Origin: a virus
Taxonomy: Duplodnaviria; Caudoviricetes
IMG/VR virus record: IMGVR_UViG_3300044678_000872
Location: 1-61,563 of that record
Reading direction: 5' to 3' (one strand)
DNA length: 61,563 bases
In this document: piece after piece, positions 59,131 to 61,563 of the stretch
Layout of the letters: every line of letters begins with the position of its first letter
Numbering within the stretch: position 1 is the stretch's first letter
The notes under the pieces: generated by a model
Told to the model about the DNA's origin: nothing
Seen by the model: only the letters and a program-made list of their open reading frames with translations
Databases searched by the model: none
Program-made: the position numbers and the translations under genes

Positions 59131-59178
59131 GAACATTCTTAAAGGTTCTTAATAGGTATAAAACAGACATCGACTGCG

Positions 59179-59251
59179 CGATCCTGACCAGATTTGAACT
59201 GGCGACCTCTACCGTGACAGGGTAGCGTTCTAACCACTGAACTACAGGACC
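59179..59251 (-). tRNA. tRNA-Asp (GTC), CCA not encoded
   Basis: GGTCCTG-TA-GTTC(AGTGGTTA)GAAC-G-CTACC(CT GTC AC)GGTAG-AGGTC-GCCAG(TTCAAAT)CTGGT-CAGGATC-G cloverleaf. Confidence 0.95.
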
Positions 59252-59254
59252 AGG

Positions 59255-59283
59255 TAGGCAGTTTTAATTCATGCCCAGGAATT
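59255..59283 (-). ncRNA. Putative H-type pseudoknot motif, copy 1
   Basis: AATTC-C-TGGGCA-T-GAATT-AAAAC-TGCCTA. Confidence 0.5.
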
Positions 59284-59288
59284 TTAAT

Positions 59289-60296
59289 TTATTTAACTCC
59301 AGCCAATTCCTTGACGGCTCTAAATAATTTATTTTTTTCTGCGTTTGCCATAGCGTCAAAACCAGAAGCAGAAGCAAGACGATTTTCTGAATTATTCTTG
59401 CGTTCTTGCTTGTAGTAATCTAGGCGTTCTGTTAAGGCATTGAACATGCCCCATGCAGTACCCTTGATGTTTGCATTAGTAGGTGAGTCAAAATATAAAT
59501 CATTGACTAGATTTATTTTACTGTCCCACTTAGTAACACTTGCTTTTTTATCCTTATCTGGTTTTGGATAAATTGCAGTAATGATGTCATAGACTTGTTT
59601 GTCATTGACTTTTGTTTCAAATAAGGCTTTGGCTTCTTTTTCAAAGTCGTCCATATATTGAATTGTTAATCCAAGAGCCTCTCTTGCAACTTGAATCTTT
59701 CCCTCAACTGTTGCAGTATGGCGTAGTTTGAAAGATTGTTTCACACTACCCAATGCAAGGTTAAGAGTATTTTGGCACACAACTCTAACAGGTGTGATAC
59801 TTGCTTGAACAGCAACTGAGCCGTCATGTGAGGTATGCACTAAGAGATAGGTTGTAGTTTTATCATTAGCACCATTAGGGTCTAAAGTAAATTCTTTAGG
59901 AATTACTAAAGAGCCAAATACGATTGTGCCATTTTTAATTGAACCAGCAGATTCCCAACTTGCACCACCATGCAATAGGTTATCTCCAAATTCAAATAGT
60001 TGTTCGTTTTGAACAACTTTGTATCTTTCGCCAACAACACCTAAAATGTCTGTGCCGTTGTCAAATGGATTAGTGCGTGTCACATAGTAATTTGATTTGT
60101 GACTACGATAGTTTTCTGGATTTTGAATTTCCTCTAACTGTATATTCCAATTAGATAGTTTTGCACTATCTAACATTGTGCTAGTGTTAATGTGTTCGTC
60201 CTTATCGAACAACACGTTTGCTAGACCATGCCAAGCAGGTGCACCTCTAAGTGCAAATGCTACTTGCCCATCTTTTTCTTCTAAGGCGTGTGCCAT
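59289..60296 (-). CDS. DUF932-family phage/plasmid protein
   Basis: PAWHGL, LGVVGERYKVVQN, ESAGS, SHDGS, TPVRVVCQNTL, RHT, GTAWGMFNALTE. Confidence 0.9.
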   Translation of the reverse strand: MAHALEEKDGQVAFALRGAPAWHGLANVLFDKDEHINTSTMLDSAKLSNWNIQLEEIQNPENYRSHKSNYYVTRTNPFDNGTDILGVVGERYKVVQNEQLFEFGDNLLHGGASWESAGSIKNGTIVFGSLVIPKEFTLDPNGANDKTTTYLLVHTSHDGSVAVQASITPVRVVCQNTLNLALGSVKQSFKLRHTATVEGKIQVAREALGLTIQYMDDFEKEAKALFETKVNDKQVYDIITAIYPKPDKDKKASVTKWDSKINLVNDLYFDSPTNANIKGTAWGMFNALTERLDYYKQERKNNSENRLASASGFDAMANAEKNKLFRAVKELAGVK

Positions 60297-60325
60297 AGGG
60301 TTTTCCTTTCGTTGTAGATATTTAT

Positions 60326-60354
60326 ATCTTATATTAAAGGTCTGACAATGTCAA
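60326..60354 (-). promoter_or_regulatory. Early sigma70 promoter (module C)
   Basis: TTGACA-17-TAAGAT; SD GAAAGGA downstream. Confidence 0.7.
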
Positions 60355-60415
60355 GGATTTCAGGATTATATTTCTACTCTTCTTAAAAGAACAAATCGGA
60401 CATCGGTTGCGCGAT

Positions 60416-60512
60416 CCTGGAGCCGCAAACCCTACGGATGCGGTCCAGGTTCTAAATACCGTTGTGGAACCTAGGTGATTACACAGTTCAAACCACAGCG
60501 GCATTTAGAATT
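60416..60512 (-). other. Two adjacent stem-loops (structured 3' UTR or small RNA)
   Basis: 18-bp stem TTCTAAATGCCGCTGTGG/CCACAACGGTATTTAGAA (one mismatch), then CCTGGACCGCA/TGCGGcTCCAGG. Confidence 0.55.
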
Positions 60513-60519
60513 CTATTGT

Positions 60520-60957
60520 CTACCAACTAGATTGATATTTGAATGACCATTCTTCGGGGTATTCAGTCAAGACCTTTTCTAATTGTTCTATAGTGTCTTG
60601 AATATCACTAAAGTAGTATTCGTTATATTCATAGTTACCAAAGAAGAATCCCTCTTGCCTTGGCAATAAAGTTTTTGCCTCTTCTTTATCTATTAATACA
60701 ATCTTACAAGTATCTAATAATAATTGTAGTTGGTCTCGTGACACGTAGTATTCTTCACAGTTGTCAACACCATTTTGGACGTGGTCAACAAACCATTTAT
60801 GAATCTGATTTGCTTTTCTCCAATAAGCAACTTGAACTTCTAGCGTTGCAGTATCAAGTGCAAACGGTGCCTCTTGAACTAGTTTATTATAAAGGTCTGG
60901 ATTTTTCCAGCCATTGAAAGTCATTTGTCTTGCTGTTAAATACATATCTAATCCCAT
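60520..60957 (-). CDS. Hypothetical phage protein
   Basis: MGLDMYL...VAYWRKANQIHKWFV...GFFFG...YQSSW; SD AAAGGA. Confidence 0.8.
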   Translation of the reverse strand: MGLDMYLTARQMTFNGWKNPDLYNKLVQEAPFALDTATLEVQVAYWRKANQIHKWFVDHVQNGVDNCEEYYVSRDQLQLLLDTCKIVLIDKEEAKTLLPRQEGFFFGNYEYNEYYFSDIQDTIEQLEKVLTEYPEEWSFKYQSSW

Positions 60958-60983
60958 TTGAATTCCTTTTCTAGTAGGGTTGG

Positions 60984-61012
60984 TGAGCAGTTTATACCCA
61001 TGCTCAGGGGGT
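60984..61012 (-). ncRNA. Putative H-type pseudoknot motif, copy 2
   Basis: ACCC-CC-TGAGCA-T-GGGT-ATAAAC-TGCTCA. Confidence 0.5.
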
Positions 61013-61109
61013 TGTCAAGAGTGGGGGCTAGGCGATTTGCAAGCCCCGACCCTTGCCTTTGGCTACCATGTATATGGAACTAATATCCATGTGTATGGTT
61101 ATGCCAAAT

Positions 61110-61563
61110 CTATAAGTATCTACTTACAGATTGGTAAGTTGAGGTTGAGACTACTTCCTCATCTGACATACTTAGAACACGAATTGCATTTTGTATTTCT
61201 GCAAGTCTATCCTCGAAGCCACCAATATAGTTGCGACCATATCCTTGTGATTGAAAGGGTGGCTTAGGTGCTTCTGGTTCTACTGGTATCTTATCTCTTG
61301 GAACTTCTACTTCAACATCAACTCTGATATTGTCATCATTATGCCAAGCATTTCTAACAGAAATAGTCTTTTGTTTATCTTTTACTGAGTCAAGATGAGC
61401 ATAAGCAATCTGGGCTACTTTGTTTTTCCAATCAGCGTAGTCTGTTTCATGCTTACTTAATAGCAACTCATAATTCATTTGTTGGTTTTTCATTTCTTCT
61501 ACTTTTACTTCTAATGCTTTGATAACCTTAGTTCTGGCTACCTTTACATTTATTGCTTTTGCC
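61110..61563 (-). CDS. Hypothetical protein, 5' end at or just beyond the window edge
   Basis: Frame stays open upstream of the tracked start: AKAINVKVARTKVIKALE... Confidence 0.7.
   Translation of the reverse strand, partial: AKAINVKVARTKVIKALEVKVEEMKNQQMNYELLLSKHETDYADWKNKVAQIAYAHLDSVKDKQKTISVRNAWHNDDNIRVDVEVEVPRDKIPVEPEAPKPPFQSQGYGRNYIGGFEDRLAEIQNAIRVLSMSDEEVVSTSTYQSVSRYL

Follow-up and report, generated by a model that had tools for sequence, protein, structure and literature searches.

A widespread, strongly constrained RNA pseudoknot between phage genes that is absent from Rfam

Two sites on the minus strand of a 61,563-nt viral DNA (IMG/VR record IMGVR_UViG_3300044678_000872, Caudoviricetes; this whole stretch is hereafter the window) are members of a large uncatalogued family of H-type RNA pseudoknots, each about 30 nt long. 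The element is real, widespread and strongly constrained, lies between cistrons on the sense strand and is absent from Rfam; its mode of action is what we infer further below. The initial annotation of the window had described two copies of a covarying pseudoknot of no named family, one ending 3 nt before a tRNA-Asp gene and the other upstream of the open reading frame (ORF) 60957..60520, and had called two copies thin evidence. Re-reading the sequence found both copies where it had placed them, and its reservation is superseded by hundreds of copies in other genomes.

Structure, conservation and spread of the pseudoknot family

The family consensus is NNNC-C-UGRGCA-h-GNNN-NNAAAC-UGCYCa, in which stem 1 has three to five variable pairs and a conserved C-G closure, and stem 2 (UGRGCA/UGCYCA) has 5-6 bp. 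Homologs gathered with the core pattern CCTGRGCATG-N5-AAACTGC keep both stems. In a gap-free alignment of 130 distinct sequences, 89.8% of cells were paired in the proposed fold, compared with 25%–38% when the partners were slid by one to three columns, and the covariation score was 0.406 against 0.130 ± 0.008 after shuffling, a value reached by 0 of 500 shuffles. The sequence of stem 1 is different in nearly every copy, and its pairing is kept: next to the C-G closing pair (columns 9-18), which the search pattern fixes in this alignment, columns 8-19 are paired in all 130 sequences (UA 59, AU 56, CG 12, GC 3), columns 7-20 in 129 with four pair types, and columns 6-21 in 108, while columns 5-22 are paired in 42 of 130 and hence lie outside the core. 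Stem 2 covaries as well. Position +4/+22 is A-U in all 112 sequences with R=A and G-C in all 18 with R=G, without exception; +3/+23 is G-C in 113 and G-U in 15 of 130; and +2/+24 is U-A in 86, U-G in 11 and unpaired in 33. Across the family, stem 2 swaps comprise A-U/G-C, G-C/A-U and C-G/G-C.

Conservation figures were made independent of the search pattern by two extra scans that left different positions unconstrained. In these, loop 3 reads AAAC in 115 of 118 stem-1-compatible matches (the exceptions being TAAC, AAAG and AAAA) and loop 1 is C in 181 of 183, so that both loops are about 97%–99% fixed. The stem 1 closing pair is C-G in 178 and swapped to G-C in 3, and the junction base is U in 115 (63%), A in 51 or 52 (28%), C in 12 (7%) and G in none of 183. 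Many copies hold a TATAAA-like sequence in loop 3. Diverged copies are included among the 158 matches (E ≤ 0.5, in 100 loci; loci are cited here by L numbers) of a covariance model, R1; they show compensatory A-U pairs at +3/+23 and at +5/+21, a C-to-U wobble at +6, a loop 3 that is 2 nt longer, and a subclass ending in AAAAGGCUCA.

Some loci depart from the simple form. At L027 (3079-3146), an insertion of about 30 nt, apparently a hairpin, separates the 5' arm of stem 2 from the 3' arm of stem 1, and the junction therefore tolerates large insertions. Tandem pseudoknots are present in L147 (2054-2121), in L177 and in the crAss-like phage cr7_1 (L479, about 655-726), where the first unit shows the swap to G-C in its closing pair, together with U-A at +3/+23.

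Small triplex-stabilised pseudoknots, such as the frameshifter of beet western yellows virus (BWYV), have a protonated C of loop 1 in a base triple, an extruded junction base and the adenosines of loop 3 in the minor groove. The loop and junction pattern of the present family would match theirs, an assignment that we draw by analogy.

The core pattern matches at least 120 IMG/VR contigs, compared with 5 contigs in the whole collection for the reversed pattern. Because the variant with R=G, which makes up 18 of the first 130 unique copies, by itself matches at least 120 contigs, the family can be estimated to lie on at least about 800. A stricter pattern matched at least 119 loci in a collection of species-representative genomes. 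IMG/VR contigs carry no host labels; named phages were found by BLAST with three common stem 1 variants, and the sequence was inspected in 14 records. Named carriers are Lentibacter phages ICBM1-3, Roseobacter SIO1, Celeribacter P12053L, Paracoccus ParMal1, Vibrio D456, Synechococcus S-EIVl, Mycobacterium Labelle, Arthrobacter Molivia, Clostridium tetani phiCT19406B, Staphylococcus SA13 (85 Staphylococcus records match the query), Streptococcus Javan271 and Lactobacillus phig1e, the last three with a weakened variant bearing a stem 2 mismatch or a U-G wobble. Further carriers are cr7_1 and one 5-kb Microviridae genome. The family thus spans phages of Proteobacteria, Cyanobacteria, Actinobacteria and Firmicutes, is also carried by bacterial metagenome-assembled genomes, and occurs in loci of 30% to 59% GC content. 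Copies per genome range from one (ICBM2, Labelle, ParMal1) to six or seven (S-EIVl), with seven in the 14.6 kb of L030, and multiple copies within a genome always share one strand. Among 5426 Escherichia coli genomes, a query with one stem 1 variant, which detects near-identical stem 1 sequences only, returned one weak plasmid match.

The statement that no named family covers the element holds against Rfam 15 (4227 models). At gathering thresholds, the whole window matched tRNA alone and nothing on the element; at E ≤ 10, the region 59150-61100 gave nothing on the element's strand, and the lone overlap, with CRISPR-DR21 on the opposite strand, was at chance level (21 bits where the threshold is 48, E 1.6). 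Scans of 53 other loci (18 bacterial, 6 named-phage, 29 viral) gave no match on the element, while tRNAs, a glutamine-II riboswitch, hammerhead and pistol ribozymes and the DUF2800 RNA were detected there as positive controls. Besides these, tmRNA-model matches of about 75-80 nt lie beside tRNAs in two viral contigs (L001, 2105-2185; L050, 11486-11558), and the glutamine-II riboswitch is in a third (L005, 7880-7936).

Literature searches by core sequence (CUGAGCAUG, and CTGAGCATG with the word phage) and by motif description found no account of the element, in a body of work that leaves aside the supplementary tables of Fremin et al. (2023). The available text of that study gives 10,006 candidate viral RNAs, one of which overlaps tRNA-Asp in one of its 27 places, and our motif could be among those candidates (PMC10690425). 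Two 2026 preprints on language-model mining of intergenic regions do not mention the element in their accessible parts. The fold type is familiar; the family, the breadth of its hosts across several phyla and its position after stop codons are new to the literature searched.

Phages have densely packed genomes, and cis-acting RNA signals common to unrelated phages are few. Conservation at 97%–99% across such carriers usually marks an RNA with a demanding biochemical role.

Position among genes and comparison with known RNAs

Of 261 unique viral copies, none is contained in an open frame of at least 100 codons. On the upstream side, 210 of 247 cases have their longer open frame on the same strand as the pseudoknot, and on the downstream side 209 of 249 do. 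This intergenic sense orientation, together with strand-specific G-U pairs, leaves an RNA-level element of the sense strand as the only comfortable reading. A DNA operator, the alternative that the initial annotation had raised against an RNA, is unlikely in view of the same two observations and of the covariation in stem 1. A DNA-level function of whatever kind, be it operator, promoter, recombination linker or single-stranded DNA (ssDNA) structure, appears most improbable. The overlap of copy 2 with a TTGACA-16-TATAAA match and the TATAAA-like loop 3 of many copies would suit such a function, as would the element's place at the bounds of gene cassettes and its one copy in an ssDNA Microviridae genome; however, stem 1 covaries without conserving its sequence, only this strand tolerates the G-U pairs at +3/+23 and +2/+24, the flanking genes run in the same direction as the element in about 85% of copies, and the orthologue of copy 2 has no -35 box.

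Distances to neighbouring genes were counted for the 133 copies of the first scan, an upstream ORF being accepted if it had at least 60 aa and ended within 200 nt. Such an ORF was present for 121 copies. In 51 copies, its stop codon lies 8, 9, 10, 11 or 12 nt before the 'CC' (20, 10, 6, 4 and 11 cases), that is, about 4-9 nt before stem 1; the distance is below 8 nt in 4 copies and above 40 nt in 35. Bacterial loci share the peak (8, 9 and 10 nt in 15, 9 and 11 cases), and the stop distances have no three-base periodicity and no favoured reading frame. On the other side, a start codon follows within 60 nt in 82 of the 133 copies, mostly at 19-28 nt, and a tRNA at 2-12 nt in 12 (Asp 8; Val, Asn, Ala and Arg one each), while in 39 copies the downstream side lacks both a start codon (up to 60 nt) and a tRNA (up to 20 nt).

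Among viral copies, neither terminator-like sites within 110 nt (4 of 251 downstream versus 9 of 251 upstream) nor strong promoter-like sites (7 versus 8 of 251) are enriched downstream, and most phage copies are therefore internal to operons. The initial annotation had placed the element in early-region leaders. This description is too narrow, as the element lies between cistrons, close behind the upstream stop codon, and is also found in late operons and, in bacteria, in the 3' region of a tiny ORF.

The genes flanking the element are functionally unrelated. Upstream families include DUF932 (15), HSP20 (13) and ribonucleotide reductase (4), and downstream families include Zn_ribbon_8 (10; 32.8 bits, just below the Pfam cut-off), SNase (4) and glutaredoxin. 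In phages of Firmicutes (Staphylococcus, Streptococcus, Lactobacillus), the element stands in late operons between minor-head genes and the scaffold gene; in cr7_1, it is upstream of the primase gene; and in Molivia, the order is SSB gene, pseudoknot, tRNA-Gly. The pseudoknot-then-tRNA arrangement is also found in L060, and tandem pseudoknots precede tRNA in crAss-like contigs. A general link to DUF932 was rejected, since the DUF932/DUF945 homologue of Streptomyces phage Karimac (52% identity) is followed by an ordinary terminator-like hairpin and no motif. Two deposited coding sequences cross the pseudoknot, the glutaredoxin of ICBM2 (L124, 1480-1530) at its start and the hypothetical gp30 of phiEcoM-GJ1 (L251, 1381-1623); the annotated glutaredoxin start and the reality of gp30 look doubtful.

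Past stem 2, G falls to 3%–8% for about six positions (+25 to +30) in a C/U-rich stretch. Position +24 is A in 74%, and ACC follows stem 2 in 37 of 259 copies; ACCA is the commonest 4-mer there, in a minority of copies (23 of 259, against a control mean of 3.5 for CCA), and shows no enrichment among bacterial copies (1 of 120).

The element was compared with several known classes. A -1 frameshift signal is not supported, as none of 58 copies near a stop has an in-frame slippery heptamer, and the -1 frame is shut after a median of 7.5 codons. Readthrough of the murine leukemia virus (MuLV) type, where the spacing is about 8 nt, is not supported either, the zero frame being shut after a median of 7 codons past the stop; in the same 58 copies, all three frames are shut after a median of 5-7.5 codons. 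Intrinsic termination is contradicted by the T content (35%–43% at +26 to +32) and by the scarcity of terminator-like sites downstream. As to a tRNA-like fold or RNase P substrate, the stacked stems reach 9-11 bp, there is no T-loop, and ARAGORN and Rfam call the true tRNA only. Theta ribozymes, which resemble hepatitis delta virus (HDV) ribozymes, are placed no more than 5 nt from tRNAs (Met, Sup and Leu for the most part) and have P4/L4 and J4/2 elements according to the part of the source available (PMC10879173); the present element is without P4/L4 and J4/2, and its tRNA neighbours differ.

The DUF2800 RNA (RF02960) was set aside, as the pseudoknot adjoins the model match in two Firmicutes loci and lies outside it. 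In L183, the pseudoknot occupies 887-911 and the DUF2800 RNA starts directly 3' of it at 912 (887-1071 overall; 157 bits), and in L197 (1-162) the match ends at 137 and the pseudoknot spans 138-162 (121 bits). In three further loci (L168, L185, L206), the gene upstream is homologous (L185, L206) or the context is shared, and the pseudoknot is followed by another conserved sequence, one that has no Rfam match. Known ribozymes were seen on the same strand as pseudoknot copies in two loci: a RAGATH-1 hammerhead (70.6 bits) and a pseudoknot one gene apart in L062 (5649-5733 and 6050-6087, respectively), and a pistol ribozyme (49.4 bits) and a pseudoknot in L086 (5749-5818 and 5539-5577).

In 21 bacterial loci, the pseudoknot is tied to an ORF of 16-27 aa with the consensus MKRFxxPRxAHCxEGC. 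These comprise 18 of 20 loci inspected (three with divergent peptides, one cut at a contig end), L163, and two found with a peptide-based pattern; by record title, they belong to Aminicenantes, Thermodesulfobacteriota, Anaerolineae, Spirochaetota, Actinobacteria and others. Examples are L166 (1149-1231), L134 (6059-6159), L147 (1996-2121), L178, L169, L244, L369 and L370. A Shine-Dalgarno sequence is visible in most and a promoter-like sequence in several. The stop is usually a UGA inside CCUGAGC, or else an in-frame stop one to three codons earlier, so that the pseudoknot occupies a 3' position. An intrinsic terminator follows it in several loci, with a convergent gene next in at least one. 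The peptide pattern occurred in 3 of 201 sampled genomes of one phylum, all 3 with the pseudoknot, and five genomes with the small ORF have one pseudoknot locus each, one of them a tandem pair. Neighbouring genes vary (DUF72, peptidase C26, SerRS, M20 peptidase), the peptides match no NCBIfam family, and four hexa- or heptapeptide strings from them were found in no paper.

Possible roles between cistrons

The initial annotation had suggested ligand binding, a nuclease block, antitermination or processing, and all four recur among the readings weighed here. Our preferred reading, held tentatively at a probability of about 0.35, is that a compact pseudoknot of the triplex type serves phage mRNA as a processing and stability barrier between cistrons. 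The pseudoknot would be a folded 'punctuation mark' on the polycistronic mRNA that stays folded while the upstream ribosome terminates, and its persistence would explain the sharp lower limit of 8 nt after stop codons. RNase P would cut at a following tRNA, or an endonuclease in the G-poor spacer, and the pseudoknot, now the compact 3' end of the RNA, would halt 3'-5' exonucleases, so that the stability and expression of neighbouring cistrons would be uncoupled. A floor of 8 nt leaves about 5 nt before stem 1, the shortest distance at which a structure escapes unwinding by a ribosome with the stop codon in its A site, and suggests that the fold must persist during termination. We rank this reading first because it would accommodate the largest number of contexts, namely copies internal to operons, those before tRNAs, those before promoters in relatives of the window phage and those before terminators in bacteria.

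Two known arrangements resemble it. The MALAT1 and MEN-beta triple helices are likewise compact A-rich structures just 5' of a tRNA-like unit (mascRNA in the case of MALAT1), where the upstream RNA comes to end in the structure once RNase P has cut, as it would across the 2-12-nt phage gap; the setting here is bacterial and phage, however, the U-A-U triplex and poly(A) tract are replaced by a pseudoknot, and mostly a gene, not a tRNA, follows. Repetitive extragenic palindromic sequences and bacterial interspersed mosaic elements (REP/BIME) of E. coli and the RNase III sites of T7 are also repeated, sense-oriented intercistronic structures just past stop codons, but those are long hairpins of one lineage, whereas the present element is a 30-nt pseudoknot with fixed loops and hosts in several phyla.

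A number of observations weigh against a punctuation role. Genome compaction, together with the need not to block termination, would give the same 8-nt floor. RNA contigs cover neither window copy, and no 5' or 3' RNA ends were observed. Copies in phages of Staphylococcus, Streptococcus and Lactobacillus precede abundant scaffold and capsid genes, which a benefit to the downstream gene fits at least as well. Bacterial small-ORF loci already have a terminator hairpin, and their stop often falls within stem 2, which shows that the '8-nt rule' does not hold everywhere. The triplex geometry itself is drawn from analogy, and a plain hairpin would do as an exonuclease block. The weakest point is to explain the invariance of the loops and of stem 2: a near-invariant loop 1 C, AAAC and stem 2 across phages of several phyla suggest a specific partner, ligand or chemistry. 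The criteria of Weinberg et al. (2017), as given in the accessible part of that paper, take a pseudoknot, conserved nucleotides and many phyla as marks of RNAs with 'sophisticated' functions, ribozymes and riboswitches, and also point in this direction (PMC5737381). This weakness keeps several rivals alive.

One rival is a site-specific signal for RNA processing, either a new tiny self-cleaving ribozyme or a site for a universal endonuclease such as RNase P, which might read stem 2 and the following A(CC) as an acceptor-like helix and, by cutting there, separate cistrons or free tRNA precursors. We hold it unlikely, although the element's distribution is that of phage ribozymes (hammerhead, twister, pistol, hatchet and HDV-like theta), being dispersed, sense-oriented, intergenic, present in one to seven copies per genome and patchy in unrelated phages. 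The pistol ribozyme, too, has a 5' half that is a hairpin whose loop pairs downstream, and a hammerhead and a pistol lie about 300 and 170 nt from copies in L062 and L086. A variable junction base that is never G, flanked by invariant pairs, would also suit this rival, as would the A at +24, the ACCA excess and the tRNAs at 2-12 nt. A pseudoknot with nucleotides at least 97% conserved over many host phyla also bears the signature set out by Weinberg et al., as far as the available text goes (PMC5737381). Yet at about 30 nt the element is roughly half the size of the phage ribozymes, would be smaller than the known natural self-cleaving classes, and lacks P4/J4-2-type elements; no known ribozyme model matches it in scans that found hammerhead and pistol elsewhere. 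The RNase P variant is further weakened by the low frequency of ACC, by the lack of ACCA enrichment in the bacterial set and by stacked helices of 9-11 bp with no T-loop mimic, unlike RNase P substrates.

Just as improbable, in our estimate, is a translational insulator or roadblock, in which a stable pseudoknot at the mRNA entry of the terminating ribosome would stop sliding or 70S scanning and keep upstream translation from the next ribosome-binding site, tRNA or structured RNA, so that cistrons are translated independently. The sharp 8-nt minimum with a spacer of about 5 nt before stem 1 equals the entry-channel spacing, and the architecture is like that of frameshift-stimulating pseudoknots. 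Those of luteoviruses (BWYV; pea enation mosaic virus, PEMV; sugarcane yellow leaf virus, ScYLV) appear similar in being H-type folds of 26-30 nt that carry a conserved C in a very short loop 1, have one nucleotide at the junction and close an A-rich loop 3 with an AAAC-like sequence, 5-6 nt past the A-site codon, whereas our element follows a stop codon in DNA phages and has a stem 2 of 5-6 bp rather than 3 bp. Its placement between minor-head and scaffold genes, whose outputs must differ greatly, and directly 5' of tRNAs and DUF2800 RNA would also fit insulation. Against this, the spacing could equally come from genome compaction and unobstructed termination, the 35 copies more than 40 nt from an upstream stop and the 39 without a near start codon or tRNA do not conform, and both the strong sequence conservation and the copies before a terminator and convergent gene are left unaccounted for.

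Less probable again is a small ligand-sensing aptamer of the preQ1-I size and fold class, whose ligand-stabilised fold would modulate the access of nuclease, ribosome or Rho. The element resembles preQ1-I (RF00522), SAM-II and guanidine-III in size, H-type fold, A-rich 3' loop and invariant junction nucleotides, with its invariant unpaired C and AAAC clustered at the helix junction as in small pseudoknot riboswitches. Nine of the 12 adjoining tRNAs are Asp or Asn, the queuosine carriers, a weak hint as the eight Asp share one ancestral module. The 'sophisticated' class of Weinberg et al. would again apply, within the part of the text available (PMC5737381). Unlike preQ1-I, however, the element gives no covariance match at E ≤ 10 and none to any Rfam riboswitch model, and it has no recognisable expression platform: the Shine-Dalgarno sequence lies outside the fold and not in stem 2, and terminator-like sites are not enriched. 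The flanking families (DUF932, HSP20, ribonucleotide reductase, glutaredoxin, SNase, Zn ribbon, scaffold, primase) are unrelated to one another and include no queuosine or preQ1 gene, so that no defined gene function is linked to the element, and a post-stop position is atypical for a riboswitch.

We give still less weight to a nascent-RNA antiterminator acting on RNA polymerase or Rho in the untranslated stretch past a stop codon, where, by analogy with put or EAR RNAs, it would let elongation complexes withstand termination or polarity. The element must fold right behind a terminating ribosome, is found before untranslated tRNA and non-coding RNA segments and is followed by a G-poor, C/U-rich stretch, and RNA polymerase as a universal partner could explain conservation across phyla. 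But antitermination would make no sense for copies just 5' of promoter-like sequences, as in relatives of the window phage, or before a terminator and convergent gene, and known antiterminator RNAs are larger.

A broader possibility, rather unlikely in our estimate, is that the family constitutes a new class of self-contained functional RNA, either the smallest natural self-cleaving ribozyme or a minimal pseudoknot that binds a ligand or a host machine, acting as a universal intercistronic signal. Such a class would serve phages of essentially all major bacterial phyla, ssDNA microviruses included, and some bacteria. Whichever role applies (3'-end protection, cleavage, control of ribosome or polymerase, or ligand sensing), it would amount to a general principle by which phage operons are organised, and the element would be a compact, portable part for synthetic operon design. 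The pseudoknot-then-tRNA arrangement and the pairing with a 16-27-aa, Cys-containing bacterial ORF offer experimental handles.

The two copies in the window and their surroundings

The window record is estimated to be 57% complete and belongs to a tailed phage, which encodes a tape measure protein of 2045 aa besides a large DNA polymerase and a DnaB-like helicase. The 22-nt core common to both copies, CCTGRGCATGRRTWWAAACTGC, is found at exactly two places in the window, also when 3 mismatches are tolerated, and has no match in 100 dinucleotide-preserving shuffles. A covariance model from relatives finds these two sites alone (Table 1), the next-best match having an E of 0.6.

Table 1. The two pseudoknot copies and adjoining features of the window (arms and loops are listed 5' to 3' on the minus strand)
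Feature	Position	Strand	Details
Pseudoknot copy 1	59283..59255	-	AATTC-C-TGGGCA-T-GAATT-AAAAC-TGCCTA; covariance model 39.8 bits, E 5.5e-10
Copy 1, stem 1	59283-59279; 59270-59266	-	5' arm AATTC; 3' arm GAATT
Copy 1, stem 2	59277-59272; 59260-59255	-	5' arm TGGGCA; 3' arm TGCCTA; one G-U pair
Copy 1, unpaired	59278; 59271; 59265-59261	-	loop 1 C; junction T; loop 3 AAAAC
Pseudoknot copy 2	61012..60984	-	(A)CCC-C(C)-TGAGCA-T-GGGT-ATAAAC-TGCTCA; covariance model 42.6 bits, E 7.9e-11
Copy 2, stem 1	61012/61011-61008; 60999-60996	-	5' arm; 3' arm GGGT
Copy 2, stem 2	61006-61001; 60989-60984	-	5' arm TGAGCA; 3' arm TGCTCA
Copy 2, unpaired	61007; 61000; 60995-60990	-	loop 1 C; junction T; loop 3 ATAAAC
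tRNA-Asp (GTC)	59251..59178	-	69.6 bits; 5' end 3 nt (CCT) past copy 1
DUF932-family gene	59289..60296	-	PF06067, E 9e-55; TAA stop 9 nt ahead of copy 1 'CC'
ORF, 145 aa, function unknown (phrog_7971)	60520..60957	-	ATG 26 nt past copy 2
ORF upstream of copy 2	61110..61562	-	5' end cut by window edge; stop 101 nt before copy 2
Sigma-70-like promoter match over copy 2	60991..61018	-	consensus match alone

For copy 2, the initial annotation had paired ACCC with GGGT and left a loop of CC. The fold stands, but this register is shifted by one relative to the family because in the family the G of 'CATG' has the first C of 'CC' as its partner, leaving a 1-nt loop 1; both registers are possible at this site. 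At the orthologous site in L024, stem 1 is TCTC/GAGA where copy 2 has CCC/GGG, a compensatory change. The promoter-like overlap that had been noted as a caveat was confirmed in the sequence (TTGACA 61018-61013, 16-nt spacer, TATAAA 60996-60991). A transcript initiated there would be without the pseudoknot, and the L024 copy, 5' of the orthologue of the phrog_7971 ORF, has no such -35 box.

The gene order around copy 1 (DUF932, pseudoknot, tRNA-Asp) recurs in L003, L010, L011, L039, L049, L108 and L111. The ORF upstream of copy 2 is homologous to a family of about 140 aa that is flanked by pseudoknots in L002, L030, L060, L061, L087, L103 and L106. Several copies in relatives of the window phage sit directly 5' of promoter-like sequences. 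In such relatives (L060 at about 10080, L103 at about 4860, L161, L229), DnaA-box-like nonamers (TTATCCACA / TGTGGATAA) and AAAAATTTTC tracts follow some pseudoknots, and such motifs could mark an origin or a region bound by DnaA.

Up to 87% of the window's sampled words are present in 'lake water metagenome' DNA runs. RNA contigs from four lake metatranscriptomes cover parts of the DUF932 gene and of the gene at 61106-61563, and neither pseudoknot.

The spacer between ORF 60957..60520 and the DUF932 promoter (60390-60515, minus strand) is itself structured, with a long hairpin TTCTAAATGCCGCTGTGG...CCACAACGGTATTTAGAA and then a minihelix, CCTGGA-CCGCA-loop-TGCGG-C-TCCAGG. On its 3' side, this minihelix together with the trailer (CAGGATCGCGCA..CGATGTC.G.TTT) has the same sequence as tRNA-Asp at 59190-59150, where the 3' acceptor strand and trailer lie. 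The minihelix, for which ARAGORN and Rfam made no call, may be a tRNA remnant or a tRNA-like processing signal. Within this spacer, the 31 nt at 60465-60495 are present in RNA contigs of all four lake metatranscriptomes with identical, unrelated flanks on both sides, and are therefore a piece common to another expressed sequence.

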